NCBI GenBank assembly: GCA_035063785.1
Contig: JAPSFS010000008.1
Span: 76,212-140,211, forward strand
Length of the DNA: 64,000 bases
From: Comamonadaceae bacterium
Lineage (GTDB): Bacteria > Pseudomonadota > Gammaproteobacteria > Burkholderiales > Burkholderiaceae_C
Direction of reading: 5' to 3'
The notes below the pieces were generated by a model. It had not been told where the DNA came from. It worked only from the letters and a program-made list of their open reading frames with translations, and made no database searches. Shown one piece after another: positions 9,866 to 60,705 of this stretch. Within the stretch, counting starts at the first letter, position 1. Each line of letters begins with the position of its first letter. Made by a program: the position numbers and the translations under genes.

Positions 9866-9912
9866 AAGGGCTGCCCGCGCTTGCCCAACAAGCGCTGGCA
9901 GCTCTTTTTTTG
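9866..9912. repeat. Palindromic repeat family, copy A (intergenic; acts as a bidirectional rho-independent terminator)
   Basis: GGGCTGCCCGCGCTTG-cccaa-CAAGCGCTGGCAGCTC forms a 14-bp stem with 1 mismatch. It is followed by T7 (9905-9911) on the + strand and by CCCTTTTGA on the - strand. It lies between convergent kbp-like and DUF45 genes. Confidence 0.8.
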
Positions 9913-9916
9913 TGAT

Positions 9917-10639
9917 TCATTCCCACCCCGGCGCCACCTGCTCGCGCAGTTCGCGGCGCAGGCGCAGATGGTCGGGCACCACGCCCTGCACGACGTGCCA
10001 GAAGCGCGGGCTGTGGTTCATCTCGCGCAGGTGCGCGAGTTCGTGCACCACGACGTAGTCGATGACCTCGGCCCGGTAGTGCATGAGGCGCCAGTTCAGG
10101 CGTATCGTGCCGCTGGCCGACGCGCTGCCCCAGCGCGTTGCGGCGCTGGAGAGCACGAGACGCTGGTAGCGCACGCCCAGCCGCGGCGCGTAGGCGTCCA
10201 GCCGGGCGGTGAAATGCGTGCGCGCCACGCCGCGCAGCCAGGCCTGCACGCGCGCGCGAACCTCTGGCACATCCGCCGTGGGCGCAAGCCCGAGCAGCAG
10301 CGCCCCGCCCTCGCAGCGCACCGGATGGCGCGCGCCGTCGAGCCGCAGCGTGAGCGGCGCGCCCAGAAACGCCAGCGTGCCGCCATCGCGCCAGGCGATG
10401 CGGGCGGCGTCCTGGCGCCTCTCACGCTCGCGCGCCTCGGCGAGCTTGCGCACGATCCACGCCGACTTCTCCTGCAGCGCCGCGTCCACCGCGCCCAGCG
10501 TGGCCGACCACGGCGCGCGCACCGCCAGGCCCTGCGCGCCCACGGTGAAACCGATGCTGCGCCGGCGCGCGCGTTCGAGCCGGTAGGGCACGGCCTGGCC
10601 CGCCAGCAGCGCCACGCGCTGCGCCACGGCGGTGCTCAC
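9917..10639 (-). CDS. YgjP-like (DUF45/M48-related) metal-dependent hydrolase
   Basis: HELAHLREMNHSPRFW is an HExxH..N.S..FW motif characteristic of the DUF45/YgjP family. Confidence 0.8.
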   Translation of the reverse strand: MSTAVAQRVALLAGQAVPYRLERARRRSIGFTVGAQGLAVRAPWSATLGAVDAALQEKSAWIVRKLAEARERERRQDAARIAWRDGGTLAFLGAPLTLRLDGARHPVRCEGGALLLGLAPTADVPEVRARVQAWLRGVARTHFTARLDAYAPRLGVRYQRLVLSSAATRWGSASASGTIRLNWRLMHYRAEVIDYVVVHELAHLREMNHSPRFWHVVQGVVPDHLRLRRELREQVAPGWE

Positions 10640-11400
10640 GGCGCAGGGTCCGCCGCGCAGGCTTCAGGGTAGGCGTCGGGGTCCAGGCGGCGCATCTCGG
10701 CCTCGATCCACGCCTGCACCTCCCGCGTGAGCTCGTCGGCCTTGCGGCCGGTGCTGGCAATCGGCGGGCCGATCGAGACGTCGACGATGCCGGGGCGCTT
10801 GACGAAGCCGGTCTTGGGCCAGACCCGGCCCGACGTGACGGCCACGGGCACCACCGGCACGCCCGCCTCGATGGCCAGGCGCGCGCCGCTCACCATGTAC
10901 GTGCCCACGCTGCCGCGCGCCTCGCGCGTGCCCTCGGGGAACATCACCACCCAGATGCCTTCGGAGAGCAGCCGCTTGCCCTGCTTGAGCACCTTCACGA
11001 ACGCGCGCGTCGGGTGGCCGCGGTCGATGTGGATCATGTCCAGGCTGCCGATCGACCAGCCGAAGAACGGAATCTTGAGCAGCTCGCGCTTGAACACGTA
11101 GGCCACGCGCCGCGGCATCAGCGCGGGCATGAGGAACGTCTCGTACGCCGACTGGTGCTTGACGAGCAGCACGATGCCGTGCGCCGGGTCGGTCGGCAGG
11201 TGCTCCATGCCGATCACGCGCTTCTTGATGCCAAGCACCCAGTGGGCCGCGTCCACCGCCAGTGCAAGCCACGCGCGCGCGGGCACATAGCGCGCCTGCG
11301 CGCCGCCGCCCAGCAGCCGCACGAGCAGTACCGCGGCGGTGTAGGGAATCACGGTGACGACGAGCACCAGCAGGTAGACGATGGAGCGCAGCAGCGACAT
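10636..11400 (-). CDS. plsC: 1-acyl-sn-glycerol-3-phosphate acyltransferase
   Basis: It has an N-terminal TM segment, the HQSAYETF (HxxxxD-like) block and the FPEGTR block. The ATG is the complement of 11398-11400. Confidence 0.85.
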   Translation of the reverse strand: MSLLRSIVYLLVLVVTVIPYTAAVLLVRLLGGGAQARYVPARAWLALAVDAAHWVLGIKKRVIGMEHLPTDPAHGIVLLVKHQSAYETFLMPALMPRRVAYVFKRELLKIPFFGWSIGSLDMIHIDRGHPTRAFVKVLKQGKRLLSEGIWVVMFPEGTREARGSVGTYMVSGARLAIEAGVPVVPVAVTSGRVWPKTGFVKRPGIVDVSIGPPIASTGRKADELTREVQAWIEAEMRRLDPDAYPEACAADPAP

Positions 11401-11416
11401 GGCAGGGGTTCCCGGT

Positions 11417-11971
11417 TCAGGCCGCCGGGCGCAGCAGCGCATCGACGCAGGCGGCGAGGCTCGCATGCGCGCGCGTGCCCGGCGGCCACGCGCTGGCAAG
11501 CGGCGCGCGCGCATCCACCGCCTGCGCCTCGCCGGTGCACACCAGGTGCAGCGCCGCGCCCACGGCCGCGCCCGCGCGCAGATGCGCCAGGCAACTGCCG
11601 ATGACGGTGAGCTCGCTGCCCGCGACGCCGTAACGCTCCTCGATCTGGCGCATCAGCCCCGGCGCGGGCTTGTGGCAGTCGCAGCCGTCGGCCACGTCGT
11701 GCGGACAGAGGAAGAACGCATCGATGCGCCCGCCGAGCGCCGCCAGTTCGCGCTGCATGCGCACGTGGATGCGCACCAGCGCGGGCATGGTCAGCCGCCC
11801 GCGCGCGAGCAGCGGCTGATTGGTCGACAGCACCACGCGCCAGCCCGCCTGCGTGAGCCGCGCCAGCGCCTGCAGCGCGCCGGGCAGCGGCTGCCACTGC
11901 TCGGGTGTGGTGATCGGCGGGTCGGCGAGCGCGTTGAGCGTGCCGTCGCGGTCGAGGATGGCGAGCTTCAT
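11417..11971 (-). CDS. gmhB: D-glycero-beta-D-manno-heptose-1,7-bisphosphate 7-phosphatase (HAD-IIIA)
   Basis: MKLAILDRDGTLN (DxDGT) and the Zn motif CPHDVADGCDCHKPAPG. Confidence 0.85.
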   Translation of the reverse strand: MKLAILDRDGTLNALADPPITTPEQWQPLPGALQALARLTQAGWRVVLSTNQPLLARGRLTMPALVRIHVRMQRELAALGGRIDAFFLCPHDVADGCDCHKPAPGLMRQIEERYGVAGSELTVIGSCLAHLRAGAAVGAALHLVCTGEAQAVDARAPLASAWPPGTRAHASLAACVDALLRPAA

Positions 11972-12001
11972 GGCGCCATTATCGGGAGCGGCCCCGTGAC
12001 A

Positions 12002-14104
12002 TCAGGCGAGCCGCGCCAGATCGGCCACGCGGTTCATCGCGCCGTGCAGCGTCTTGAGCAGGCCCAGGCGGTTGGCGCGCAGCTCGGGCTCCTCGGCGTT
12101 GACCATCACGTGCTCGAAGAAGGCATCGACGGGCGCGCGCAGCGCCGCGAGCGTTTGCAGGCTGGCGGTGTAGTCCCCGCGCTCGAACTGCGCATCGGCC
12201 TCGGGCGCAAGGCGCAGCAACGCCGCATGCAGGTCTCGTTCGGCGGCTTCGCGCAGCAGAGCGGGGTTCACACGGGCATCGACCTCGCCCGCCTTCTTGA
12301 GGATGTTGGTCACGCGCTTGTTCGCGGCGGCCAGCGCCGGGGCTTCGGGCAGGCCAGCAAAGGCGCGCACCGCGTCCAGGCGCGGGGCCACCTGCGCGAG
12401 CCGCTCGGGCCGCAGGGCGAGCACCGCATCGATCTCCTGACTGCCATAGCCCTGTTCGCGCAGGCTGCCCGCGAGGCGCTCGTAGATGAAGCCGGCGAGT
12501 TCCGCCGTGGGGTCGGTGATCTTGTCGCCAAACGCAGGCAGGGTATGTGCGAGCAGCTCTTGCAATGAGAGCGGTAGCGTTTTTTCGACCAGCATGCGGA
12601 TCACGCCCAGCGCGTGGCGGCGCAGCGCGAACGGGTCACGGTCGCCCGTGGGCGGGTTGCCGGTGCCGAACATGCCGACCAGCGTTTCGAGCTTGTCGGC
12701 CAGCGCCACCACCACGCCGACGGGTCCGCGCGGCAGGCTGTCACCCGCGAAGCGCGGCTTGTAGTGGTCTTCGATGGCGTACGCCACGTCCTGCGGCAGG
12801 CCATCGTTGAGCGCGTAGTACGCGCCCATGGTGCCCTGCAGTTCGGGGAACTCGCCCACCATGTCGGTCAGCAGGTCGGCCTTGGCCAGCATCGCGGCGG
12901 TGTCGGCGGCCTGCGCCAGCGCGGCGCCGCCAAGTTGCCCGCCGATCACCTTGGCGATGGCCCGCACGCGCTCGACGCGCTCGCCCTGCGTGCCGAGCTG
13001 GTTGTGGTAGACCACCTTGGCCAGTTGCGGCACGCGGCTTGCCAGCGTCTGCTTGCGGTCCTGATCGAAGAAGAACCTGGCATCCGCCAGGCGCGGGCGC
13101 ACCACGCGCTCGTTGCCCGCGATCACCGCGCTCGCGTCCTCGGGGCGGATGTTGCTCACGACGAGGAAGCGGTTGGTGAGCCTGCCGGCGCCGTCCAGCA
13201 GCGGGAAGTACTTCTGGTTGGCCTTCATCGTGAGGATGAGGCACTCCTGCGGCACCGCGAGGTATGCGGCGTCGAACTGGCAGGTGAGCACGTTGGGGCG
13301 CTCGACCAGCGCCGTGACTTCGTCCAGCAGCGCTTCGTCTTCAATAGCTGTCAGCGCTTTCCCCGCCTGCGCTGCAGCCGTTTTTATCTGAGAAACCACG
13401 GCGGCGCGGCGTTCGTCGAACGCGGCGATGACCGCGCCCTGATCGCGCAGCACGTTGGCGTAGTCGTCGGCGTGCGCGATCTCGATCGGGTCGCGCGCGG
13501 CCTCGAAGCGGTGGCCGTGCGTGGCGCGCCCCGCCGTGAGGCCCAGCGCCGCAATCGGCAGCACCTGGCTGCCATGCAGCGCCACGAGCCCGTGCGCCGG
13601 GCGCACGAAGTGCACGCTGCTCCAGCCGTCGGCGAGCTGGTAGCGCATCACCTTGGGGATGGGCAGCTTGGCAATGGCCTCATCGAGCGCCTTCTGCACG
13701 CCCGCCGCCAGCGCCACGCCGCGCACCGTGCTGTGCAGGTGCAGCACCTGAGCCTTGCCATCCTCGACACGTTCGAGCTGCGGCACGACGGACGCATCCG
13801 CGCCCAGCGCCGCGAGCTTCTTGAGCAGCGCGGGCGTGGGCTGGCCGTCGGGCGTGAGGCCGACCGACGCCGGCATGAGCTTGTGCGAGACGGTGTGGTC
13901 CTCGGCCTGCACGCGCACCGCGGTGACGTGCACCGCCAGCCGCCGGGGCGTGGCGTAGGCCGTGGGCCGCGAGCCCTCGCTCGTGAGCCCCTGCGCCACC
14001 AGCTGCTGGAACAGCACCTGGGCAAAGGCCTCGCCCAACTGGCGCAGTGCCCTGGGAGGAAGTTCCTCGACGAAAAGCTCGACGAGCAGGTTGGCGGTAG
14101 TCAT
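12002..14104 (-). CDS. glyS: Glycine--tRNA ligase beta subunit
   Basis: 700 aa. MTTANLLVELFVEELPPRAL... is a conserved GlyS N-terminus, and AANKRVTNILKK is also present. It lies downstream of glyQ. Confidence 0.95.
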   Translation of the reverse strand: MTTANLLVELFVEELPPRALRQLGEAFAQVLFQQLVAQGLTSEGSRPTAYATPRRLAVHVTAVRVQAEDHTVSHKLMPASVGLTPDGQPTPALLKKLAALGADASVVPQLERVEDGKAQVLHLHSTVRGVALAAGVQKALDEAIAKLPIPKVMRYQLADGWSSVHFVRPAHGLVALHGSQVLPIAALGLTAGRATHGHRFEAARDPIEIAHADDYANVLRDQGAVIAAFDERRAAVVSQIKTAAAQAGKALTAIEDEALLDEVTALVERPNVLTCQFDAAYLAVPQECLILTMKANQKYFPLLDGAGRLTNRFLVVSNIRPEDASAVIAGNERVVRPRLADARFFFDQDRKQTLASRVPQLAKVVYHNQLGTQGERVERVRAIAKVIGGQLGGAALAQAADTAAMLAKADLLTDMVGEFPELQGTMGAYYALNDGLPQDVAYAIEDHYKPRFAGDSLPRGPVGVVVALADKLETLVGMFGTGNPPTGDRDPFALRRHALGVIRMLVEKTLPLSLQELLAHTLPAFGDKITDPTAELAGFIYERLAGSLREQGYGSQEIDAVLALRPERLAQVAPRLDAVRAFAGLPEAPALAAANKRVTNILKKAGEVDARVNPALLREAAERDLHAALLRLAPEADAQFERGDYTASLQTLAALRAPVDAFFEHVMVNAEEPELRANRLGLLKTLHGAMNRVADLARLA
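13340..13395 (+). repeat. Palindromic repeat family, copy H (degenerate; in frame inside glyS)
   Basis: TCAATAGCTGTCAGCGCTTtccccgCctGCGCTGCAGCCGTTTTTATCTGAGAAA matches the arms and core of copy B. It is a local low-GC pocket. glyS reads it as SQIKTAAAQAGKALTAIED. Confidence 0.5.
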
Positions 14105-14169
14105 ATTGTTTTTGATAGCTGCTCGCGCTTGCTGTACAAGCGCTGGAGCCTTGTCTTACTTGAAATTTC
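14105..14169 (+). repeat. Palindromic repeat family, copy B (fills the whole glyQ-glyS spacer)
   Basis: TTTTTGATAGCTGCTCGCGCTTGctgtaCAAGCGCTGGAGCCTTGTCTTACTTGAAATTTC. This copy is used as the reference orientation (+). Confidence 0.85.
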
Positions 14170-15108
<939 letters not shown>

Positions 15109-15294
15109 GCGGGAGGCGGTTCGGAACGGAGCGAGCGCTGGGCGCGCGGCGGCGCGTGCGTGAACCGAAGATTTTAGGCGGTCGGGTGGTGAGGGCGGCG
15201 GGGCTTGGGCACGACCCGCTCCGTGCGGGGCGGCGGAGGCCGGGTCATGCCATGTACGGAACGACGCACGAGCCCCCAGCGTGGGAGCCATCCC

Positions 15295-16698
<1,404 letters not shown>

Positions 16699-16714
16699 GG
16701 CATGCGCTCCACGT

Positions 16715-18010
16715 TCATTCGATGAAAAGCAGCGCCGGGGCTTCGAGCAGACCGCGCACGGCCTGGATGAAGCGCGCCGCATCCATGCCGTCGACCACGC
16801 GGTGGTCGAACGACGAAGACAGGTTCATCAACTGCCGCGCGACCACCTGGCCACCGCGCAGCATGGGCCGCTCGACGATGCGGTTCACGCCCACGATCGC
16901 TACCTCGGGGCGGTTGATTACCGGCGTGCTTACGATGCCGCCCAGCGGCCCCAGACTCGTGAGCGTGATGGTCGAGCCCGAGAGTTCCTCGCGCGGCGCC
17001 TTGCCGGTGCGCGCGCCCTCGGCCACGCGCGCCACGCCCGCGGCGCACTGCCACAGGTCCAGCGCCTCGGCGTGGCGCAGCACCGGCACCATCAGGCCGC
17101 CATCGGTCTGCGTGGCGATGCCCAGGTGCACCGCCTCGTAGCGCGTGACCACGCCCGCCTCGTCGTCGTAGCGCGCGTTGATCTGCGGAAAGTCACGCAG
17201 CGCCACCACCATCGCGCGGATCAGCAGCGGCAGCAGCGTGAGCTTGCCGCGCGTGCCGCCGTGCACCTGGTTCAGGCGCGCGCGCAAGGCTTCAAGCTCG
17301 GTGACGTCCACCTCCTCGACGTAGCTGAAGTGCGGGATGTGGCGCTTGGCCTCCTGCATCTTCTGCGCGATCTTGCGGCGCAGGCCGATGACCGGCACCG
17401 CCTGCTCGCCGTGGCGCTCGACGTAGCCCGACGCGGCCGCGACCGGCGCGCCACCGCGCGCGGCCCAGGCATCCAGGTCTTCGTGCAGGATGCGCCCGGC
17501 CGGGCCGCTGCCCGCGACGAAGCGCAGCTCGATGCCCATCTCCAGCGCGCGTCGGCGCACCGAAGGCGCCGCCAGTGGCCGCTCGCCCTCCTTGCGCACC
17601 GTGGCGGGCGCCACGGGCGCAGGCCTGCGGGCCGGTGCGGGCGCCGGCGTCGGAGCCGGAGCGGGCGCAGGGACGGGCGCCACCGGTGCGACCTGCGGTT
17701 TTGCTTCAGAAACAGGAGCCGTTGGCGCTTGTGCAGCAAGCGCTTCCTTGAGGTTTCCCTTGCCTTCCACCTCAAGGCGCACCAGCTCGGCGCCCACTGA
17801 AAGCACGTCGCCCACCTTGCCGCCGAACGCGGCCACCGTGCCGTGCACGTGGCACGGAATTTCCACCGTGGCCTTGTCGGTCATCACGTCGGCGATCACC
17901 TGGTCTTCGGCCACCGCGTCGCCCACCTGTACGTGCCACGCGGCGATTTCCACCTCGGCTATGCCCTCGCCGATGTCGGGCACCCGGATCACATAGAACC
18001 CCATCGTCAT
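16715..18010 (-). CDS. bkdB: Branched-chain alpha-keto acid dehydrogenase E2 (dihydrolipoamide acyltransferase)
   Basis: It has a lipoyl domain ([11 protein letters not shown]), an Ala/Pro linker, an E3-binding domain and a catalytic [11 protein letters not shown] motif. Its start overlaps the E1-beta stop (ATGA at 18007-18010). Confidence 0.92.
17698..17758 (-). repeat. Palindromic repeat family, copy D (in frame in the bkdB lipoyl-domain linker)
   Basis: The plus strand reads CAGGAGCCGTTGGCGCTTGtgcagCAAGCGCTTCCTTGAGG with low-GC flanks (TTTTGCTTCAGAAA, GGTTTCCC). The gene reads it as [21 protein letters not shown]. Confidence 0.7.
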
Positions 18011-19050: not shown

Positions 19051-19053
19051 GGC

Positions 19054-20397
<1,344 letters not shown>

Positions 20398-20543
20398 CTA
20401 GGGCAACGCTGAACCAGTCCCTCGCGCGCATCGCACCCGCTCTTTGCGCATCCGGGCGGCTTCGCTAAGATGCCACGCGTGCGCCAACGCGTTGCCGCGT
20501 GCCACGCACCACCACCGTTTCTCTACTCTGGAAAGTCCACCCC

Positions 20544-20852
20544 ATGTCCAAAGCATCCGATGCCGCCGCCACCACCCAAAGCGAACTGGAGCGCCTGGTC
20601 AGCGACCTGCGCAAGCTCATGGCCAGCAAGGACCTCGACGGCGTTCCCGAAATCAAGCAACTGCGCCAGCGGCTGGACGAAGGCGTGCAAAGCGTGCGCG
20701 ATGCCACCGTGCGCGCCGCGCAGGACGCCGCCGACCGCGCCATGGACGCCGCCCGCACGGCAGACCGCTACGCCCATGACGAACCGTGGCGCGTTGCGAG
20801 CGCCGCGCTGGCCGTCGGGGCGCTCGTCGGGTTTCTGCTGGCGCGTCGCTGA
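20544..20852 (+). CDS. DUF883 (ElaB/YqjD-like) C-tail-anchored membrane protein
   Basis: MSKASDAAATTQSELERLVSDLRKLMAS... has a C-terminal TM segment after a conserved PW (EPWRVASAALAVGALVGFLLARR). Confidence 0.8.
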   Translation: MSKASDAAATTQSELERLVSDLRKLMASKDLDGVPEIKQLRQRLDEGVQSVRDATVRAAQDAADRAMDAARTADRYAHDEPWRVASAALAVGALVGFLLARR

Positions 20853-20876
20853 ACCCCGCCCACGCGCACACGACGG

Positions 20877-21287: not shown

Positions 21288-21301
21288 ACGCCCGAGGCTC
21301 C

Positions 21302-21559: not shown

Positions 21560-21564
21560 TCGCG

Positions 21565-22143: not shown

Positions 22144-22204
22144 GGAGTGCTCCGGGCCGGATTGCAACACTTGACCGCCACGCATCCCCGGCCATCTCGG
22201 AGGC

Positions 22205-22315
22205 ATCGCGGTCAAAGGTCTGGCCAGGCACACAGGCTGCTGGCGCCATGGCCGTGCGGCCAAGTGTGTTGACGTCAGCCTCTCGCAAAGCGAAGAGCGG
22301 CTACTCCCCGATGAC
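22205..22315 (-). promoter_or_regulatory. yybP-ykoY (Mn2+) riboswitch-like leader of the UPF0016 gene
   Basis: The minus strand reads GUCAUCGGGGAGUAGCCGCUCUUCGCUUUGCGAGAGGCUGACGUCAACACAC...CUGUGUGCCUGGCCAGACCUUUGAC. It contains the conserved GGGGAGUAG, GUCAAC/ACA and CCAGACCUUUG blocks and pairing P1 (GUCA/UGAC) and P3 (CACAC/GUGUG) stems, about 60 nt upstream of the start. Confidence 0.75.
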
Positions 22316-22420
22316 GCGCGGATTCTAGCAGTGCCGGTGGGGCTTCATTGACCTGTATCATGGACTGCGCTGGCGCCATCTGTCACGCTGAAATCCGTCT
22401 TCAACCCTGAGGAAATCGCC

Positions 22421-23011: not shown

Positions 23012-23033
23012 CGGGTAACGCGCCCGCGGGCGC

Positions 23034-35105: not shown

Positions 35106-36530
<1,425 letters not shown>

Positions 36531-36533
<3 letters not shown>

Positions 36534-36594
36534 AATTGGTATGAAATAGGGCTCTGGCACTTGCTGGACAAGCGCCAGCAGCTACTGTTTGAAT
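36531..36594 (-). repeat. Palindromic repeat family, copy C (boxB-boxA spacer)
   Basis: TGAAATTGGTATGAAATAGGGCTCTGGCACTTGctggaCAAGCGCCAGCAGCTACTGTTTGAATA. The arms match the reverse complement of copy B. Confidence 0.8.
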
Positions 36595-43990: not shown

Positions 43991-44012
43991 TGCCCTAGCA
44001 GGCTGGCGTCGA

Positions 44013-45276: not shown

Positions 45277-51063
<5,787 letters not shown>

Positions 51064-51130
51064 GTGGCGGCCTTCACCAAAGTGGGGCCAAAATTCTAGG
51101 CGGCTTGGTGCAGGCCACCCCCGCGCAGGG

Positions 51131-51787
51131 TTATGGCGATCCGCCCGACGCCAGCCCCGACGGCACCTGCGCCGCATCCTCCCACGCGGGGCCGTCGAAC
51201 CACGCGTCGCCATCCAGGAACGCACGCAGCAGGGTCAGGCCGTCCAGCCCCCAGAACAACCGGCCCCGCACCTCAAACATCGGCACGCCAAACACCCCCT
51301 GCGCCGCCGCCGCGTCGGTGTTGGCGCGCAGCAGCGCCTTGGCGTGCGCGCTGGCGTCGCCTTCGGGTTGCCACTGCTCGGCCAGCGCCAGCGTGAGCGC
51401 CTCCAGCCGCGCGGGATCGAGCGGGTCGTGCCCACCCAGCCACACGTGGCGCAGCACGGTGCCTGCGGTGTAGCGGTTGATGCAGCCGTCCTCGCTGTGC
51501 CGCAGCGCCAGGCGCAAGAGCGGCAGGCTGTTGAAGGGGAACTGCGGCGGCACGTCCAGGCCGCAGCCCAGCGACCGACCCAGCCAGCGCACGTGCCGCA
51601 GCGTCCACGCCCGCTTGGGCGCGATGCCCGCCGGGCCCGGGTTGCCGTGCTGCGCCAGCAGCGCGCCGAGCAGCACCGGGCGGTAGCGCACGCACACGCT
51701 CAGCCCTTCGAGCGCCTTGGGCAGTTGCTCGAAAGCCAGCCACGAATACGGCGAGACGAAATCCAGGTAGAACGTGATTTCCTTCAT
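51131..51787 (-). CDS. 2-hydroxychromene-2-carboxylate isomerase family (DsbA-like) protein
   Basis: MKEITFYLDFVSPYSWLAFEQL... and FGVPMFEV are HCCA isomerase family motifs. Confidence 0.82.
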   Translation of the reverse strand: MKEITFYLDFVSPYSWLAFEQLPKALEGLSVCVRYRPVLLGALLAQHGNPGPAGIAPKRAWTLRHVRWLGRSLGCGLDVPPQFPFNSLPLLRLALRHSEDGCINRYTAGTVLRHVWLGGHDPLDPARLEALTLALAEQWQPEGDASAHAKALLRANTDAAAAQGVFGVPMFEVRGRLFWGLDGLTLLRAFLDGDAWFDGPAWEDAAQVPSGLASGGSP

Positions 51788-51963
51788 TCCAGCTCCTTCG
51801 GCAGTACCACGCCCGCGCGGCGCAGCAGGGCGGCCCAGATGGCACGCCGCTCGGCGCCGCTCGCGCGCGGCCAGGCGCGAATCTCATGAAGCGTGCGCAA
51901 GCACCCTTCGCAGCGGCTGCGGTCGGGCGTCATGCGGCACACGGAGACGCAGGGCGAGGGCAC
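51784..51963 (-). CDS. DUF1289 family protein
   Basis: VPSPCVSVCRMTPDRSRCEGCLRTLHEIRAW is the DUF1289 Cys motif. The preferred start is GTG (complement of 51961-51963), because the 25 codons upstream (to ATG 52038) are encoded by repeat copy I. Confidence 0.65.
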   Translation of the reverse strand: MPSPCVSVCRMTPDRSRCEGCLRTLHEIRAWPRASGAERRAIWAALLRRAGVVLPKELE

Positions 51964-51974
51964 CTCGGATTCAG

Positions 51975-52028
51975 AGTCAAATTGGCCTTTGGCGCTTATC
52001 TGAAAAGCGCGAATAGCTACCAAAGGCG
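51975..52028 (-). repeat. Palindromic repeat family, copy I (ybaK-DUF1289 spacer or DUF1289 5' extension)
   Basis: TCAAATTGGCCTTTGGCGCTTatctgaAAAGCGCGAATAGCTACCAAAGG. Confidence 0.6.
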
Positions 52029-52034
52029 GAGCAT

Positions 52035-52538
52035 TCATGCGGCCGGCGCCTGCACCACGTCTTCCACCGGCGCGCCCGTCAGGCGCGCAAGGTCTTGCGG
52101 CCGCAGGCGAAACACCGCGTGCGGGTGCCCCGCCGCAGCCCAGATCTCGTCGAAGCGCAGCAGCTCGCGGTCGATCAGCGTGACCGGCGCGCTGGTGTGC
52201 CCCACGGGCGCGACGCCGCCGATGGTGAAGCCCGTCGCGCTCTTGACGAAATCGGCGTCGGCGCGGCCGATCGCGCCCACGAGCGCGCTCACCTTCTTCT
52301 CATCGACGCGCCGGTCGCCCGAGGTGATGACGAGCACCGCCGCACCGTCGCTCTTGCGCTTGAAGATGATGCTCTTGGCAATCTGGCCGACGACGATGCC
52401 CAGCGCATCCGCCGCCTCCTGCGCGGTGCGTGCGGAGCTGTCGAGCATCTGCGGCGCATGCGGGTGGCCCGCGGCGGCGAGGGCCGCCGTCACGCGCTGT
52501 ACGGAGGCATGCGGGGGCAGGGATGCGGTAACGGACAT
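52035..52538 (-). CDS. YbaK/EbsC-type aminoacyl-tRNA deacylase domain protein
   Basis: AKSIIFKRK...VLVITSGDRRVD.KKV...GFTIGGVAPVGH. The ATG is the complement of 52536-52538. Confidence 0.78.
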   Translation of the reverse strand: MSVTASLPPHASVQRVTAALAAAGHPHAPQMLDSSARTAQEAADALGIVVGQIAKSIIFKRKSDGAAVLVITSGDRRVDEKKVSALVGAIGRADADFVKSATGFTIGGVAPVGHTSAPVTLIDRELLRFDEIWAAAGHPHAVFRLRPQDLARLTGAPVEDVVQAPAA

Positions 52539-52600
52539 GGCATGGGTAGGCTTCAGTGTGGGGTCGACACGATACCCCACCGAGGCGCCCCGCGCCGCGC

Positions 52601-53686
52601 TCAGCCGGGCACGCCGGTGACCCACGCCTTGCGGATCAGCCGCCCGCATTGCACCGAGCGGTAGCCTTCGCCCAGCGAGTCGTCCAGGTCTTCATCATCG
52701 GACGACATCTGCTTGCGCGCGACGATGCCGTACCACTGCCGGCTCGCGTCGATCCACGGGTAGAAGCCGAACGCACCGGCGCTGCTGAACGCGCCATCGC
52801 CCACCACCGGGTCATCCTCGACCCAGTGACCCAGGGCGTAGTGCCAGCTCTCGCTCGCGGGCACTGGCGTGTTGCGCGCCTGCGCGCAGGTGGCGGGATT
52901 GGTGCAGACCGCGTGCGTGCCGAGCAGCGCGCCCATCTGCAGGCTGCCGTCCAGGAGCTTGCGCAGGAAGCGCGCGTAGTCGTCCGCCGTGGTGTAGACG
53001 CCGCCAGCCAGTTGCGGCTGCGAGTAGCCCAGCACCACGTCGCTGCCCAGCCTGGCGCGGATTTCGTCAGCCAGGCCGGCATTGCGCAGCGCGCCCAGGC
53101 CGACCAGGCTGGCGTGCTTTTCCATATGGCCGCCGCCGTAGGAAAACAGGCCGTCACGCGATGGCGTGTGAACGCCGTTGGTACGGAAGGCCACGCACTC
53201 GTCCACGCTCTGCGACGGCAGGCAGGCGCTGAAGCTGGTGTAGCCGCTGCGGAACGTGAGGAACTGAACGTCGCTGTCGGTCAGCGCGCCCCCGCGCAGT
53301 TCGGCCACGTAGGCGCCGTAGAGCCATTTGGATGCCGACGCGATCGCCATCACGGTGTCGTGCGCGTAGGTCGTGGCGCTGCCGGCGGACGTGAGCGACC
53401 CGGAGGCCAGCGTGCCCGTGCGGTCGCCGATCTCCCAATAAAACGGGCGGATCGGCGCGCAGGCGTTGCTGCTGCTTTGCGCCGTGCTCGTGGCCGCGGC
53501 CTGGCGCTGGGCGAGCGTCGGCACCTGCGGGGGGCCGCCATCGTCCCCCCCACCGCCGTCACCACCACCGCCGCAGGCGACCAGGCAGGCGCCCGCCATC
53601 GCGGCAATCGCCCAACGGAGGGCGCGGGTTTCGGGCGTGCGGCGCACCCCAGGTGGGTTGGAACGAGGCAAGCGGGTCTGTCTCAT
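52601..53686 (-). CDS. Serine hydrolase (beta-lactamase/transpeptidase-like) lipoprotein
   Basis: It has a lipobox (ACLVAC), a Gly/Asp-rich linker and an S-x-x-K motif (ASASKWLYG). Confidence 0.7.
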   Translation of the reverse strand: MRQTRLPRSNPPGVRRTPETRALRWAIAAMAGACLVACGGGGDGGGGDDGGPPQVPTLAQRQAAATSTAQSSSNACAPIRPFYWEIGDRTGTLASGSLTSAGSATTYAHDTVMAIASASKWLYGAYVAELRGGALTDSDVQFLTFRSGYTSFSACLPSQSVDECVAFRTNGVHTPSRDGLFSYGGGHMEKHASLVGLGALRNAGLADEIRARLGSDVVLGYSQPQLAGGVYTTADDYARFLRKLLDGSLQMGALLGTHAVCTNPATCAQARNTPVPASESWHYALGHWVEDDPVVGDGAFSSAGAFGFYPWIDASRQWYGIVARKQMSSDDEDLDDSLGEGYRSVQCGRLIRKAWVTGVPG

Positions 53687-53834
53687 CGCAGCTCCTTCAG
53701 GGCATGGTGGGAACCACGCGGACCGCGCCGTGAGCGGGCACCGCGTGCTCCCAGCATCGCCGCGCACTGTAAGGCCCGCGTGAAGAAACGTAGCGCCCGG
53801 CAAAACCGTGGTAACCGGTCGCGAGCGCACCGGA

Positions 53835-54740: not shown

Positions 54741-54759
54741 CGCGGTTCTCCAAATCGTT

Positions 54760-56802
54760 TCAGGCGGTCGCAAGTTTGAGCAGTTCCTCACCCTCGGCCA
54801 CCTGATCGCCGGGCGCGTAGAGCAGCTCGGCCACGGTACCGTCGCGCGGGGCAGCGATGGTGTGCTCCATCTTCATCGCCTCCATCACCGCCAGCGCCTG
54901 GCCCTTGCTGACCTTGTCGCCCGCCTTCACGGCGAACGACACCACCTTGCCCGGCATGGGTGCCGTGAGGCGCCCGCCCTCTTCCTGCGCGGCGCTGGCC
55001 TGCGCCAGCTCGTCGATCACCTCGATGCGCGTGGCGCCCTGCGGCGCGAACACGTCGAGCAGCCCGCCGCGCGCATAGACCGCCACCGTCTCGCGCCGGT
55101 CGGCGAAGCGCAGGTCGATGCGCCCATCGGCCACGCGCTCGAACACCAGCGCGTCGCTCACGGCCCGATCGCCCTCGCCCACGGTGAGTTGCAGCGTGCC
55201 GTCGTGCGCGTAGCGCAGCGCCGCCGTTTGCGCCACGCCGCCGAACATCAGCGCAAAGCGGCGCGTGACCTCGCCATGCGAATGCCAGCCGTCGCGGCGG
55301 CTGAAGGGGTCGGCGGTTTCGCTCGCGCGCTCAGCCAGCAGGGTGTGCGCCACCGCCGCGGCGGCAGCCAGCGGCAGGCCCACGGGCTCCTGACGGAACA
55401 GCGCCGCGCGCTCGCGCTCGATCAGAGCGGTATCGAGCTCGGCCTTCGCGAACGCGGCGCTCGCGACCGCACGGCGCAGGAACTGCACGTTGGTGGCCAG
55501 GCCCACGATGTGCGTCTCGGCCAGCGCCCCGGCCAGACGCGCCAGCGCCTCTTCGCGCGTGGCGCCGTGCACGATGAGCTTGGCGATCATGCTGTCGTAG
55601 AACGGGCTGATCGCATCGCCTTCGCGCACGCCGTCGTCAAAGCGCACGTGGATGCCCGTTCCAGCAAGCGCCGCGCGCTCGAAGCTCACATGCGGCGGCT
55701 TGCGGTAGACCACGAGCTGACCGGTGGCAGGCAGGAAATCGTTGTCGGGGTTTTCGGCGCAGATGCGCGCCTCGATCGCGTGGCCGGTGATGCGCAGGTC
55801 TTCCTGTCTGCACGGCAGCGGCTCGCCCGCCGCTACGCGCAACTGCCACTCCACCAGGTCCTGCCCGCTGATCGCCTCGGTCACCGGGTGCTCGACCTGC
55901 AGCCGCGTGTTCATCTCCATGAAGAAGAACTGCATCTGCTCCGGGTGCGCGTAGCCGCCGGGCTGCTCGACGATGAATTCCACCGTGCCCGCGCCGACGT
56001 AGTCCACCGCCTTGGCCGCGGCCACCGCCGCCTCGCCCATCCTGCGGCGCATCTCGGGCGTGAGGCCGGGCGCGGGCGATTCTTCCAGCACCTTCTGGTG
56101 GCGCCGCTGCGTGGAGCAGTCGCGCTCGAACAGGTACACGCAGTTGCCATGCGTGTCGCCGAAGATCTGGATCTCGATGTGGCGCGGGCGCTGCACGAGC
56201 TTTTCGATCAGCACCGCATCGTTGGCAAAGCTGTTGATCGCCTCGCGCTTGCACGAGGCCAGTGCCTCGGCGAAGTCCTCGCTCTTGTAGACCTCGCGCA
56301 TGCCCTTGCCGCCGCCGCCCGCGCTCGCCTTGATGAGCACCGGGTAGCCGATCGCGTCGGCCTCGCGCTGCAGCAGTGCCGGGTCCTGGTCTTCGCCCTG
56401 GTAGCCCGGTACCAGCGGCACGCCCGCCCGGGCCATGAGGCGCTTGGATTCGGCCTTCAGCCCCATGGCCTGGATGCTCGACGGCAGCGGGCCGATGAAG
56501 ACCAGCCCCGCATCCGCGCAGGCCTGCGCGAAGTGCGTGTTCTCGCTCAGAAAACCGTAGCCGGGGTGGATCGCCTGCGCGCCCGTGGCCTTGGCCGCAT
56601 CGATGATGGCCTGCCAGCGCAGGTAACTGTCCTTGGGCGCGCTGGCGCCGATGTGGATGGCCTCGTCACATGCGGCCACGTGCTTGGCATGTGCGTCGGC
56701 GTCGGAATACACCGCCACCGTCTTCACGCCCATGCGGCGGGCCGTCGCAGCCACGCGGCAGGCGATCTCTCCACGATTCGCGATCAGTATTTTTTTGAAC
56801 AT
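54760..56802 (-). CDS. liuD: 3-methylcrotonyl-CoA carboxylase alpha (biotin carboxylase + BCCP)
   Basis: MFKKILIANRGEIACRV..., an ATP-grasp domain and a C-terminal biotinyl motif EAMKMEH. Confidence 0.93.
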   Translation of the reverse strand: MFKKILIANRGEIACRVAATARRMGVKTVAVYSDADAHAKHVAACDEAIHIGASAPKDSYLRWQAIIDAAKATGAQAIHPGYGFLSENTHFAQACADAGLVFIGPLPSSIQAMGLKAESKRLMARAGVPLVPGYQGEDQDPALLQREADAIGYPVLIKASAGGGGKGMREVYKSEDFAEALASCKREAINSFANDAVLIEKLVQRPRHIEIQIFGDTHGNCVYLFERDCSTQRRHQKVLEESPAPGLTPEMRRRMGEAAVAAAKAVDYVGAGTVEFIVEQPGGYAHPEQMQFFFMEMNTRLQVEHPVTEAISGQDLVEWQLRVAAGEPLPCRQEDLRITGHAIEARICAENPDNDFLPATGQLVVYRKPPHVSFERAALAGTGIHVRFDDGVREGDAISPFYDSMIAKLIVHGATREEALARLAGALAETHIVGLATNVQFLRRAVASAAFAKAELDTALIERERAALFRQEPVGLPLAAAAAVAHTLLAERASETADPFSRRDGWHSHGEVTRRFALMFGGVAQTAALRYAHDGTLQLTVGEGDRAVSDALVFERVADGRIDLRFADRRETVAVYARGGLLDVFAPQGATRIEVIDELAQASAAQEEGGRLTAPMPGKVVSFAVKAGDKVSKGQALAVMEAMKMEHTIAAPRDGTVAELLYAPGDQVAEGEELLKLATA

Positions 56803-57537
56803 TCAAGCCACCTTCACAGAACCCGAAAACACCGACGACACGCGCCGCAGCACGGCGCGCAAAAACTTGAACAGCACCACGAGCAGCACCGCGGAAAGGA
56901 CGAGCGCCACCACCAGCGCGACGGCAAACCACACCGGGTGCTGCACCGCCAGCCAGAGCGCGGCCACCACGATGCCGTCCTCGAAGAACGACAGCCCCCA
57001 GTTGGAAAACGGCTCGGGCGAGACGTTGGCCGCCGCGCGCGTGGTCATCTTGGTGGCGAGCGCCGTGGCAGAGAGCGAGCCGCCCAGCAGCCCCGCGACC
57101 ACCGCCATCGTGGCGTCGTTCATGCCGAACACGCTCGCCGCCAGCAGCGCCCCGGCAGGCACGCGGATGAAGGCGTGCACACCGTCCCACAGGCTGTCGA
57201 GCCAGGGCACCTTGTCGGCGAAGAATTCGATGAACAGCATCGCGCCGCTCGCCATCAGCACCGCCGGATGCTGCAGCACCACGAGCCCCGGCGGCAGCGC
57301 CACCCAGTCCGCCGCGCCCGCCAACCCGACGAGGAACACGACGGCGTACAGCCGCAGACCGCTGGCCCAGCCCAGTGCGGCGGCCAGCGCGAGCAGGCCC
57401 GGCATGTCCAGCCGCGCCACGCCCTGCTGCACCTGCGCCGCGCCACCCGCGACCACCTGCGCGGTACCGGCATCGACATGCAGACCCATGCCATGGAGCC
57501 ACTGCACGATCTGGAGCCAGAGCGCGTCCATCGCCAT
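56803..57537 (-). CDS. DUF4126-like integral membrane protein
   Basis: Hydrophobic protein of about 244 aa. Its stop abuts the liuD start codon with 0 nt spacing. The family assignment is tentative. Confidence 0.55.
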   Translation of the reverse strand: MAMDALWLQIVQWLHGMGLHVDAGTAQVVAGGAAQVQQGVARLDMPGLLALAAALGWASGLRLYAVVFLVGLAGAADWVALPPGLVVLQHPAVLMASGAMLFIEFFADKVPWLDSLWDGVHAFIRVPAGALLAASVFGMNDATMAVVAGLLGGSLSATALATKMTTRAAANVSPEPFSNWGLSFFEDGIVVAALWLAVQHPVWFAVALVVALVLSAVLLVVLFKFLRAVLRRVSSVFSGSVKVA

Positions 57538-57544
57538 TGGCCTT

Positions 57545-58330
57545 TCAGCGCGCCAGCCAGTTCGGCTTGCGCTTTTGCAGGAAGGACTGCACGCCTTCCT
57601 TGCCGTCACTGCTCGCGCGGATGTCGGCGATGCCGCGCACCGTCTCGGCGATCAGTGCGGCGTTGATCTCACGCTCGGCCACATCCTGCACCAGGCGCTT
57701 GGCGACCCTCAAGGCGTTGGGACTGGCGTTGCACAGCGCATGCACCCAGCCGTCCACGGTTGCATCGAGCTGGTCGGCCGCCACCACCTCGTGCACGAAG
57801 CCGATGCGCAGCGCCTCGGCGGCGGAAAAGCGCTCGGCCGTCAGAAAGTAGCGGTGCGCCGCGCGCGGCCCCATCGCGCGGATCACGTAGGGGCTGATGG
57901 TGGCGGGCACGAGCCCGAGCTTGACCTCGCTCAGGCAGTAGTGCGCCGTATCGACGCTCACGGCCAGGTCGCACGCGGCCACCAGCCCCATGCCGCCCGC
58001 GTACACGTCGCCCTGCACGCGCGCGATGGTGGGTTTGGGGCATTCGTACATCACGCGCAGCATCTCGGCGAGCTTGCCCGCATCCTCGACGTTTTCCGCG
58101 TGCGAATAGTCCGCCATGCGGCGCATCCAGTTGAGGTTGGCACCCGCGCAGAAGGCCGGCCCTTCGGCGGCGAGCACCACGGCGCGCACGTCGCCCCGCG
58201 CGCCCACGTCGGTGAACGCGGCGGTGAGCTCGGCGATCACCTCGTCGCTGAAGGCGTTGCGCACCTCGGGCTGGGTGAGGGTGATGCGGGCGACGGAGCC
58301 GTCGAACGTGGTCGTCAGCGCGGTACTCAT
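57545..58330 (-). CDS. liuC: Methylglutaconyl-CoA hydratase (crotonase family)
   Basis: GPAFCAGANLNWM...VYAGGMGLVAACDLAVS, within the liu operon. Confidence 0.85.
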   Translation of the reverse strand: MSTALTTTFDGSVARITLTQPEVRNAFSDEVIAELTAAFTDVGARGDVRAVVLAAEGPAFCAGANLNWMRRMADYSHAENVEDAGKLAEMLRVMYECPKPTIARVQGDVYAGGMGLVAACDLAVSVDTAHYCLSEVKLGLVPATISPYVIRAMGPRAAHRYFLTAERFSAAEALRIGFVHEVVAADQLDATVDGWVHALCNASPNALRVAKRLVQDVAEREINAALIAETVRGIADIRASSDGKEGVQSFLQKRKPNWLAR

Positions 58331-58348
58331 GGGCAAACTCTCCAAAAT

Positions 58349-58771
58349 TCAGTTGATGGCGCGGCGCGGTGGCTCGAAGGTCTGCAGGCCATGATGGCGC
58401 ACCATGCCGTCGAAATCGCGGTCGGCGTGCAGCAGTGGGACATCGTTATCGATGCACCAGGCGCCTACCAGCAGGTCGATCGCGCTGCGCACCGTGGTGC
58501 CACGCGCGCGCAGGCTGCGATAGACGGACGCGGCCAGATACGCCACCTGCTCGCCCCCGGCCACGTGGACGGGGAAATCACCCAAGGCTGCCTGCGCCGT
58601 GCGCAGCTCGCCCAGATGGCGAAAACCCCGCAATACCTCCATCAGCACCACGTCGAGCAGGACGAGATCGCACTCGTCGCTGTCGAGCGCGGCATCGAGC
58701 GCCTGCGCCTGCGGCGTGTCGACGCCGTTGAAGTAGTCGATCCAGACGCTGCTGTCCACCGTGTACATCAT
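58349..58771 (-). CDS. vapC: Type II toxin VapC (PIN-domain RNase)
   Basis: The PIN acidic residues are VDSSVWIDY (D), MEVL (E), IDLLV (D) and HADRDFD. It overlaps vapB by 4 nt. Confidence 0.88.
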   Translation of the reverse strand: MMYTVDSSVWIDYFNGVDTPQAQALDAALDSDECDLVLLDVVLMEVLRGFRHLGELRTAQAALGDFPVHVAGGEQVAYLAASVYRSLRARGTTVRSAIDLLVGAWCIDNDVPLLHADRDFDGMVRHHGLQTFEPPRRAIN

Positions 58772-59055
58772 GGTCGGGCCTTGGCCGGGCGGCGGCGCGC
58801 GCCACCCGCATAGGGAGCGGCTGCAGGCTCATTGACCGCAGCCGTCGCCAACACATCGCCTGCTTCCCAGGCAGGGGCGAGCTTGGCCGAATCGTCCCAG
58901 TGCAACTTGCCACGCAGCGCGCGCAAGCCCTGATAGGCCTTGCGGCGGCGCAGCAGGCGCAAGCCCTCTTCCACGGCCTCCTTCTTGGTCTTGAACTCGC
59001 CCGAGCCCATGACCGCAGCCATCAGCTCGTCGTCGATGTCGATGTTGGTCCGCAT
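58768..59055 (-). CDS. vapB: Type II antitoxin VapB (DUF2191/RHH-like)
   Basis: MRTNIDIDDELMAAVMGSGEFKTKKEAVEEGLRLLRRR is a typical VapB N-terminus. Confidence 0.8.
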   Translation of the reverse strand: MRTNIDIDDELMAAVMGSGEFKTKKEAVEEGLRLLRRRKAYQGLRALRGKLHWDDSAKLAPAWEAGDVLATAAVNEPAAAPYAGGARRRPAKARP

Positions 59056-59067
59056 GTCCCGCCTTGA

Positions 59068-59099
59068 AATGTGTATGAATTCAATGAATCATACACATT
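59068..59099. promoter_or_regulatory. 11-bp inverted repeat (AATGTGTATGA-N10-TCATACACATT), candidate vapBC operator and/or post-liuB hairpin
   Basis: Seen directly, 13 nt upstream of the vapB ATG. The right arm overlaps the liuB TAA stop. It is an AT-rich island in GC-rich DNA. Confidence 0.5.
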
Positions 59100-60705
59100 A
59101 CATGCGGAACACGCCAAACTTCGTCTCTGCTATCGGCGCGTTGCGCGCGGCCGAGAGCCCCAGCGCCAGCACGCGGCGCGTGTCGGCGGGGTCGATCACG
59201 CCGTCGTCCCACAGGCGCGCGCTGGCGTAGTAGGGGTGGCCCTGGGCCTCGTATTGCGCGCGGATCGGCGCCTTGAAGGCTTCTTCTTCCTCGGCGCTCC
59301 AGGTGCCGCCCTTGTGCTCGATGCCGTCGCGCTTGACGGTGGCCAGCACGCTCGCGGCCTGCTCGCCACCCATCACACTGATGCGCGCATTCGGCCACAT
59401 CCAAAGGAAGCGCGGCGAGTACGCACGGCCGCACATGCCGTAGTTGCCCGCGCCGAAGCTGCCGCCGATGATGATAGTGAACTTGGGCACGCTGGCCGTG
59501 GCCACGGCCGTGACGAGCTTGGCGCCGTGGCGCGCGATGCCCTCGTTCTCGTACTTGCGGCCCACCATGAAGCCGGTGATGTTCTGCAGGAAGACGAGCG
59601 GCACCTTGCGCTGGCAGCACAGCTCGATGAAGTGCGCGCCCTTTTGCGCACTCTCGCTGAACAGGATGCCGTTGTTGGCGATGATGCCCACGGCCATGCC
59701 CTCGATGCGCGCGAAGCCGCAGACCAGCGTGCTGCCAAAGCGCGCCTTGAACTCGTCGAAGGCGCTGGCATCGACGATGCGCGCGATGATCTCGCGCACG
59801 TCGAACGGCTTGCGCGTGTCGCTGGGAATCACGCCGTAGAGCTCTTGTGCTGCGTATTTGGGAGCTGCCGGCGCTTGGTCCGCAAGCGCTGGAGCCTTGT
59901 TTTGGTTCAAATTCGCGACGATCTGCCGCGCCAGCGCCAGCGCGTGCGTGTCGTTCTGCGCCAGATGGTCGGCCACGCCCGACAGGCGCGTGTGCACGTC
60001 GCCGCCGCCCAGGTCTTCGCTGCTGACCACCTCGCCGGTGGCCGCCTTCACCAGCGGCGGGCCACCAAGAAAAATCGTGCCCTGGTTCTTCACGATGATG
60101 GATTCATCGCTCATCGCCGGCACGTACGCGCCGCCCGCGGTGCACGAGCCCATCACCACCGCGATCTGCGCGATGCCCTGCGCGCTCATGTTCGCCTGGT
60201 TGTAGAAGATGCGGCCGAAGTGCTCCCGATCGGGGAACACCTCGTCCTGGTTGGGCAGGTTGGCGCCGCCCGAATCGACGAGGTAGATGCACGGCAGGCG
60301 GTTCTGCTGCGCGATCTCCTGCGCCCGCAGGTGCTTTTTCACCGTCACGGGGTAGTAGGTGCCGCCCTTCACCGTGGCGTCGTTGCACACGATCATGCAA
60401 TCGACGCCGCTGACGCGCCCTATGCCCGCAATCAGCCCGGCGCAGGGCGCGGCGTTGTCGTACATGTTCAGCGCCGCCAGCGGCGCGATCTCCAGGAATG
60501 GCGTGCCGGGGTCAAGCAGCGTCCGCACCCGCTCGCGCGGCAGCAGCTTGCCGCGCGATACGTGCCGCGCGCGCGAGGCCTCGCTGCCGCCCAGTGCGGT
60601 GCGCGCGAGTTGCGCGCGCAGATCGTCCACCACCGCCTGCATGGCCGCCGCGTTGGCCAGAAAATCCGCTGAGCGCGGATTGAGTCGCGTTGCAAGAATG
60701 CTCAT
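59098..60705 (-). CDS. liuB: 3-methylcrotonyl-CoA carboxylase beta (carboxyltransferase)
   Basis: 535 aa: [42 protein letters not shown]. Confidence 0.94.
59853..59914 (+). repeat. Palindromic repeat family, copy G (in frame inside liuB)
   Basis: GGGAGCTGCCGGCGCTTGgtccgCAAGCGCTGGAGCCTTGTTTTGGTTCAAATTC matches copy B at about 41 of 56 aligned positions, with mismatches mainly in the loop. The gene reads it as [20 protein letters not shown]. Confidence 0.8.

Follow-up and report, generated by a model that had tools for sequence, protein, structure and literature searches.

The 64,000-nt stretch of a Comamonadaceae genome analysed here (the window; positions 76,212 to 140,211 of contig JAPSFS010000008.1, assembly GCA_035063785.1; 67% G+C) harbours nine copies of one palindromic repeat, five of which reside within conserved genes, namely glyS, mccB, the gene for the E2 subunit BkdB and, twice, a tandem uvrA-like gene (Table 1). 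An earlier note, made from the sequence alone, had listed the nine copies and likened them to Rickettsia palindromic elements. Comparison with orthologues shows that the intragenic copies overwrite an equal length of native GC-rich coding sequence and are neither native loops nor insertions. What is unusual here, and well supported, is that housekeeping genes are overwritten with no change in length; the mechanism that we infer for it is put forward tentatively.

All nine copies are recovered by an nhmmer model built from 19 intergenic copies of other genomes, with zero window sequence included, at E-values from 2e-12 to 4e-4, copy D being the weakest. The full unit of ~66 nt extends a little beyond the spans initially given. 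The core GCGCTTG-N5-CAAGCGC occurs 13 times in the window at two mismatches or fewer against 2.7 occurrences expected, and 13 is reached in none of 100 shuffles. Copies D, E, F, G and H are located within unbroken open reading frames (ORFs) with a G+C content at third codon positions (GC3) of the coding type, which bears out the claim of an in-frame translation, the protein segments concerned being linker-like or poorly conserved; likewise, gene calls agree with the intergenic placement of A, B and C and, probably, of I. A tenth, degenerate candidate in rfbD, absent from the earlier list, is read in the same frame as the other coding copies.

Table 1. Copies of the repeat and other features of the window. 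For the repeat, + is the orientation of copy B; E-values are those of the nhmmer model; gene coordinates are followed by the strand.
Feature	Position	Strand	Location and reading	E-value
copy A	9862..9921	+	intergenic, between convergent genes for a BON-LysM protein (9360-9848 +) and a YgjP-like metalloprotease (9917-10639 -)	2.4e-11
copy H	13337..13402	+	inside glyS (12002-14104 -); antisense reading KTAAAQAGKALTAIED	2.1e-6
copy B	14105..14173	+	whole 65-nt glyQ-glyS spacer	2.8e-12
copy D	17697..17758	-	BkdB E2 subunit gene (16715-18010 -), start of Ala/Pro linker	4e-4
copy C	36527..36594	-	intergenic, between boxB-like stop (36533) and boxA-like start (36606), co-directional	1.3e-9
copy E	46358..46422	+	tandem uvrA-like gene (45277-51225 -); reading NTAQTLVQQAPAAM	1.9e-6
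copy F	48024..48095	-	same gene, linker between the two UvrA modules; sense reading EELPALDGQALEAKNA	4.8e-11
copy I	51963..52028	-	between ybaK-like gene (52035-52649 -) and DUF1289 gene	1.9e-12
copy G	59849..59922	+	inside mccB (59098-60705 -), inter-domain loop; antisense reading	1.1e-11
tenth candidate copy, degenerate	6604..6664	+	inside rfbD (6449-7423 -)	2.7e-4
manganese (yybP-ykoY) riboswitch	22152..22321	-		
VapB/PIN (VapC) toxin-antitoxin pair	~58345..59098	-	between mccB and enoyl-CoA hydratase gene	

The family consensus, derived from 139 copies that were not pattern-selected, reads tgCTat.aaattgATAGCTGCyaGCGCTTG-N5-CAAGCGCTgGAGGCCaATTtgacT..aAatt and describes an imperfect palindrome with the near-invariant head ATAGCTGC, the hairpin GCGCTTG-N5-CAAGCGC and AT-rich arms, the G+C content of which (0-30% against a background of ~65%) is lower than that of the surroundings, as noticed before. 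The core stem of 7 bp is paired in 47-92% of the copies per position and is extended by seven more outer pairs including a consensus T-G pair; G-T pairs in the stem exceed A-C pairs, partly because the consensus itself has this T-G pair. The arms are partly self-complementary (AAATTG/CAATTT), with weak pairing (29-50%). In 237 non-coding copies the head is composed of A (0.82), T (0.81), A (1.0) and G (1.0), with a first-position G in 14%; about half of these copies were selected for AGCTG, and the unbiased set yields the identical consensus. A GTAG head is present in copies C and I. Folding of the hairpin as RNA, proposed earlier as a check, gives a divided result, as copies A, B, C, F and G fold better than shuffles (z -1.9 to -6.6), whereas D, E and H do not (z +0.4 to -1.2).

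Overwritten patches in housekeeping genes

MccB of the window aligns residue for residue (1-535) with the Pseudomonas aeruginosa protein (PDB 3u9r_B) and with a second structure of 535 residues; indels at the site of copy G are found in 0 of 120 homologues, and the conserved residues N-L-N are encoded by the terminal motif of the element. Nine mccB orthologues were compared at the nucleotide level. In the seven element-bearing ones, GC3 at the site is 0.24-0.52 versus 0.72-0.92 for the gene, whereas in L208 and L209, where the model detects zero copies in mccB or a few kb of its flanks, the site has equal length, ordinary GC3 (0.90 and 0.81 versus 0.87 and 0.81 for the gene) and no similarity to the element. 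According to the earlier note, the same segment with unrelated nucleotides in distant orthologues would mark the loops as native. Distant orthologues are indeed equal in length and unrelated in nucleotides, but the element-bearing genomes carry element DNA of low GC3 at this very site, and these two observations together identify the copies as overwrites.

The patch in mccB is retained at the nucleotide level. A/T-ending codons at the site are matched in 79% of the orthologue comparisons versus 34% elsewhere in the gene; the pairs compared are non-independent, with single distant pairs in agreement (e.g. 8/9 vs 4/32). Something keeps the element-like nucleotides at this site, either a constraint or conversion that recurs. 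An intact hairpin core is seen in the window, L082 and L084, and a native-like one (GGCGCAnnATCGnCGGGC, resembling element-free L209) in L083, L085 and L086 despite element-like arms.

In GlyS, there are zero indels at the site of copy H versus 80 orthologues and a 2-residue gap versus E. coli GlyS. The hairpin of copy H is degenerate, and element-like DNA is restricted, among the glyS loci compared, to the window, L003 (Acidovorax) and L055 (Ottowia), while the sister of the window (L002) and the sister of L003 (L004) possess the native GC-rich GGGVRPI at this place. Identity between sisters drops to 0.39-0.55 over ~25 codons, one element length, versus gene means of 0.80-0.84, and the three patch-bearing genes are mutually 0.80-0.92 identical in the patch, exceeding their own gene-wide means. 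The GlyS patch is thus common to three non-sister lineages. The glyS gene of L009 is chimeric, its core being native and its arms element-like. In composition the patches are foreign, and they persist.

Lnt of relatives carries element-like DNA in four genomes without an indel versus 43 others, the copy of L065 matching 16/16 consensus bases, and RfbD differs in length from Salmonella RmlD (1kbz) by two residues. BkdB shows no indel at copy D versus the L002 orthologue, and the linker of the window is the shortest of 121 homologues; the motif NLKE..A.QAPAAP is widely common to BkdB homologues at this place. Copy F immediately precedes the second UvrA module; the segment that contains it has 61 residues against a median of 60, and peptides resembling the product of this copy are found in the closest homologues (P0122, P0125, P0158); its ATAG head is altered to GGAG, which removes an in-frame TAG. 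Copy E falls in the hypervariable linker by which the two ABC halves of the second UvrA module are joined. This linker has 61 residues in the window and 33-155 among the 41 sequences shown, and copy E is alone in occupying a linker of truly variable length, compatible with insertion. The clean, lineage-specific indel for which alignment of orthologues had been proposed as a check is consequently not seen in MccB, GlyS and BkdB, nor at copy F, the variable linker of copy E being the only candidate. All coding copies of the window are situated in weakly constrained segments such as inter-domain linkers and surface loops.

The tandem uvrA-like gene itself encodes more than 1,900 residues with two complete fused UvrA modules, and copy F lies exactly at their junction, which could be a former intergenic spacer. 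In other Burkholderiales, at least two further repeat families are translated in the same UvrA and BkdB linkers and lengthen the protein (e.g. P0252-P0257, P0145, P0147, P0148, P0158). Peptides of one follow SPLPP.GEGR.GG...SPHPNPPP.GEG, e.g. GEGRGEG...SPHPNP, those of the other WGQTPI...LESDPN or GSDPN. As these repeats lengthen the same linkers, the length neutrality of the element does not arise from an inability of the linkers to grow.

With respect to the reading frame, the earlier note had deduced from the window that all coding copies use the same stop-free, Ala/Leu/Gln/Pro-rich frame. Within the window this is correct, with 5/5 copies reading GCG CTT Gnn nnn CAA GCG or a degenerate equivalent, but family-wide it is not, as among ~21 independent intragenic sites ~13 use this ALxxQA frame, ~7 a second frame and one, weakly, the third (RLxxKR). 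The ALxxQA frame is used in either orientation, although the sense orientation needs a change of the ATAG head owing to its TAG, as in copy F; the second frame, LIAxSA[C/W/Y]xxSAG, is used in sense orientation only. The bias is real without being absolute, two of the three frames being used and no single frame being universal, and tolerance of the peptides can explain it. A Pfam scan gave no match for the ALxxQA-frame peptides, and only the other frame matches a profile, DUF1010.

The family and its intergenic copies

The loci sampled, which surround glyS in 80 genomes and mccB and were complemented by a pattern scan of metagenomes, add up to 2.4 Mb and contain 310 copies of the family. Its density is ~1 per 7 kb, and the similarity between copies is only 65-80%. 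Extrapolation from the density in the window, rather than a count, suggests that a genome holds several hundred copies. The family occurs in loci of Acidovorax, Comamonas, Simplicispira, Paenacidovorax and Ottowia and on plasmids of Diaphorobacter, Acidovorax and Comamonas, and is absent or weak in the sampled loci of Delftia, Ramlibacter, Limnohabitans and Hydrogenophaga. The strict element pattern is also matched exactly in two viral or proviral IMG/VR contigs (L210 2629-2656, L211 5408-5435). Rfam returned no element match in a gathering search of the window, and E-value searches of 9700-18000 and of one integron locus were empty, so that the element is no described RNA family; nor did literature searches find a published name for this Comamonadaceae repeat, in agreement with the initial impression that it belongs to no named family.

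While 5/9 listed copies of the window are coding, ~90% of the family copies in the sampled loci are non-coding and ~10% coding. Non-coding copies are placed between co-directional (127), convergent (60) or divergent (36) genes. Their orientation relative to transcription (53 forward, 74 reverse) shows no clear bias, which weakens a purely RNA-level role. Pairing of copies is rare: of ~275 copies, two pairs are spaced by 41 nt and a single pair by 159 nt, the remainder being singletons, and none of the ORFs between paired copies is transposase-like.

The spacer between glyQ and glyS illustrates the behaviour of intergenic copies. Besides the window, it contains the element in the same orientation in L002, L005, L009, L029 and L053, and its length is then 59-99 nt, or 37 nt in L009, whose glyQ stop falls within the element. 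Spacers without the element measure -4 to 34 nt in most loci, with other inserts of 60-193 nt in a few. The lengths of filled versus empty spacers show that intergenic copies are real insertions of ~60 nt. A different element of 170-193 nt, rich in CCCCCC/GGGGG, fills this spacer in L003, L018, L038 and L065. The spacer after the gene downstream of glyS carries the element in at least five genomes. Orthologous intergenic sites keep their copies across genomes.

Copy A forms a near-perfect 19-bp hairpin followed by T7 (-34.8 kcal/mol, z -6.55) and, judged from this predicted fold, looks like a terminator. A terminator consensus scan did not flag it, because of an internal mismatch. At least some intergenic copies, copy A among them, probably act as hairpin or terminator-like 3' structures. 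Copy I occupies a 72-nt gap after the ybaK-like stop and upstream of the probable GTG start of the DUF1289 gene, a start backed by the gene call in L001 and by a 60-residue Comamonas aquatica orthologue; it is probably 5'-untranslated, being translated only if an upstream ATG at 52038 is used. The YgjP-like gene that has copy A at its 3' end in the window carries the element at its 5' end in several Acidovorax-like genomes (L032 13685-14671, L018, L199), where it would encode VADFKPKVPLALDGQALVAPK if an upstream start is used.

Relation to known repeats and possible routes into coding sequence

The element represents an unnamed family that resembles repetitive extragenic palindromic (REP) sequences (Bertels and Rainey, 2011, PMC3116915; Di Nocera et al., 2013, PMC3733652) and is no textbook REP. 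Features in common are the short imperfect stem-loop palindrome with a conserved head beside the stem, the high copy number (extrapolated here) with extragenic placement mostly between co-directional or convergent genes near 3' ends, the excess of G-T over A-C pairs in the stem, the restriction to a lineage with vertical persistence at orthologous sites and the occasional occurrence inside genes, uvrA and those for tRNA synthetases in particular. Di Nocera et al. (2013, PMC3733652), who also mention the Rickettsia palindromic elements, had already described REPs within genes, among them double copies in uvrA and others in tRNA synthetase genes, and in view of these precedents a palindromic repeat translated inside conserved genes is not new.

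On the other hand, the head is ATAG, with a first-position G in ~14%, and not the GTAG/GTGG tetranucleotide of REPs, the conserved unit of ~66 nt with AT-rich arms exceeds the 20-40 nt of REPs, and nearly all copies are singletons, in contrast to REPINs, which are inverted doublets with a short spacer. Furthermore, the intragenic copies are length-neutral, whereas the published REP cases are interpreted as insertions. A phmmer search for a REP-associated tyrosine transposase (RAYT), with E. coli YafM as the query, returned no hit among the 14,971 ORFs of the sampled loci, in which only about half a gene copy is expected. As to miniature inverted-repeat transposable elements, the profile has no conserved flanking duplication, and the glyQ-glyS spacers with and without the element have diverged too far for one to be discerned.

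With the Rickettsia palindromic elements the family shares in-frame translation inside conserved housekeeping genes in surface-compatible segments. It differs from them in an unrelated sequence, another host clade, a much shorter unit and, above all, in that MccB, GlyS, BkdB, Lnt and RfbD (the latter within two residues) keep the orthologous length. The Rickettsia elements, as Ogata et al. reportedly described them in 2000, are clean lineage-specific insertions of 30-50 residues. An analogous scenario, in which a mobile palindrome inserts into genes and only in-frame, stop-free events in tolerant loops survive with ~20 residues added each, would be in line with the genuine insertion of the intergenic copies, with the linker of copy E, in which the window is ~27 residues above the shortest orthologues, with the lengthening of the same UvrA and BkdB linkers by other repeat families, and with the reports of intragenic REPs as insertions in uvrA and tRNA synthetase genes (PMC3733652). 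We nevertheless regard it as improbable. Net length change is zero in MccB (120 homologues and two PDB structures), GlyS (80 orthologues) and Lnt (47 orthologues), two residues in RfbD and one residue above the median at copy F, the BkdB linker is the shortest of its kind and the conserved NLN of MccB is written in the terminal motif of the element, so that insertion is already contradicted for G, H and D. As the coding copies other than E are length-neutral and ~90% of the sampled copies are intergenic, the view of the earlier note that the repeat resembles Rickettsia elements rather than intergenic REPs in its behaviour is largely unsupported.

Could the coding copies be mere compositional look-alikes, produced by Ala/Leu/Gln-rich coding in a GC-rich genome, with only the intergenic copies being real? 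Copy D scores only 4e-4 and copies H and E 2e-6, the hairpins of these three fold no better than shuffles, and NLKE..A.QAPAAP is widespread in BkdB homologues. Yet copies G and F reach ~1e-11 under a model that never saw them, the similarity extends into the AT-rich arms with codons rare in these genomes, L208 and L209, where no copy is detected, have ordinary GC-rich codons at the site, and the Lnt copy of L065 agrees with the consensus at every one of the 16 bases. This explanation, already contradicted for G, F and H, is very improbable.

The reading that we prefer, if without firm conviction, is a templated short-patch replacement from the abundant family that is filtered by peptide tolerance. 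The donor would be another genomic copy of the family, from which a short native patch is replaced by templated copying, be it through ectopic gene conversion, template switching during replication or the annealing of element single strands at microhomologies. Selection at the protein level would then retain length-neutral, stop-free events in two of the three frames, with Ala/Leu/Gln/Pro/Ser peptides as a result. Once established, the patch would be inherited, its A/T-rich codons being kept through continued conversion or a nucleotide-level constraint, and its appearance in non-sister lineages would come about by exchange of the patch or recurrent conversion. A related process is short-patch double illegitimate recombination, in which ectopic single strands reportedly anneal at microhomologies and are incorporated during replication (bioRxiv 10.1101/2023.11.22.568220). 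It creates a short cluster of templated changes that can be length-neutral, but is known as a rare laboratory mutation mechanism in Acinetobacter and is not known as a route by which repeat families enter genes.

Several observations weigh against such a replacement. The sequence analysed here yielded no donor copy that matches any of the patches exactly, and no recombination breakpoint was mapped. Native GlyS sites, evaluated by a position-weight score, resemble the element only at the level of chance (median top fraction 0.09), and a homology-seeded entry was consequently dropped as a demonstrated step. The chimeric states in mccB of L083, L085 and L086 and in glyS of L009 are accounted for by piecemeal convergence no less well than by a single replacement of 66 nt, and suggest more than one step. 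Finally, copy E may be a true insertion, and copy D is statistically weak and lies within a naturally Ala/Pro-rich linker.

The main rival to templated replacement is in-place convergence, in which the element is a nucleic-acid signal such as a protein-binding site, a hairpin or an uptake-type sequence and the coding sequence drifts towards it by point substitutions under selection or drive, comparable to the DNA uptake sequences of Haemophilus and Neisseria. We consider it unlikely, though clearly less so than insertion. Length neutrality, the placement in weakly conserved protein segments and preferred frames, the chimeric intermediates with element-like arms and native core, the A/T-ending synonymous sites retained across genera and the sharing of a patch by non-sister lineages, an outcome to be expected from biased uptake together with recombination, are all in its favour. 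The precedent are the uptake sequences of Pasteurellaceae and Neisseriaceae, which accumulate in genes without length change, in weakly conserved protein segments and in particular frames, and the intergenic inverted pairs of which double as terminators (Findlay and Redfield, 2009, PMC2817400). Those sequences, however, have near-exact cores of 9-12 nt at ~1 per kb, while the element is a unit of 66 nt with copies only 65-80% alike and a REP-like density.

Sub-motifs such as GCGCTTG, AGCGCTT, ATAGCTG, TAGCTGC and others occur outside full elements at the rate expected from a third-order Markov model, and a short uptake signal was rejected, as these sub-motifs are not enriched on their own. Uptake signals are far denser than ~1 per 7 kb, and we know of no sequence-specific DNA uptake in Comamonadaceae. 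Moreover, sister genes diverge by 40-60% over a sharply delimited patch of ~25 codons, which suggests an event and not drift.

The more comprehensive proposition, that a REP-like family enters genes not by transposition but by templated, length-neutral replacement of weakly constrained segments, and that the nucleotide sequence of the patches is then maintained and either handed on between genera or created anew at the same site, is offered with correspondingly greater reserve than replacement as such. If true, it would constitute a sequence drive acting inside the housekeeping genes of free-living bacteria. As a rule, palindromic repeats inside genes are taken for insertions "decorating" proteins, whereas here ~20 codons of essential enzymes (GlyS, MccB, Lnt) are rewritten with the protein length unchanged; thus, repeat families may give rise to clustered multi-residue substitutions in conserved proteins and may have been overlooked in this role. 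Alignment-based screens for indels will miss such length-neutral copies, and the patches yield local anomalies in codon usage and false signals of recombination or positive selection. The family also provides a natural system in which to test if genomes are shaped by short-patch templated replacement, known so far only as a rare event in the laboratory.

Integron cassettes and neighbouring features

A search of plasmids revealed that class 1 integrons of Enterobacteriaceae and other hosts carry a copy of the element within a DUF1010 (orfD-type) gene cassette, for example on the E. coli plasmid NZ_KJ541071 (L212 2334-2651). The first ~16 positions of the Pfam profile DUF1010 (PF06231) correspond to the translated element (FLASSAYAASASSY), and the end of the domain covers attC. 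Judged from this correspondence, DUF1010 probably includes a translated repeat and may as a whole be a translated non-coding cassette. Tandem DUF1010 units are found in the metagenome loci L156 and L172, and L207, to which the Pfam scan was not applied, displays copies at the same tandem spacing of 261 nt. The DUF1010 unit of ~200 nt consists of element, spacer and attC, whereas the copies of the window lack the remainder and are not in cassettes. The element itself was rejected as an attC, since its consensus has AGC/GCT instead of AAC/GTT and no terminal RYYYAAC/GTTRRRY boxes; in the cassette it is situated ~100 nt upstream of the real attC, GTCTAAC...GTTGGGC. That an element specific to Comamonadaceae occurs in a common cassette of class 1 integrons hints at the origin of this cassette.

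Adjacent to mccB, the VapB/PIN toxin-antitoxin pair (Table 1; 11651-12357 in L001) is shared by the window, L082 and L085 but lacking in L083, L084 and L086, a patchy occurrence that characterizes it as a variable insertion inside the leucine-catabolism cluster. The sole Rfam match in the window is the manganese riboswitch, with 84.9 bits versus a gathering score of 45.

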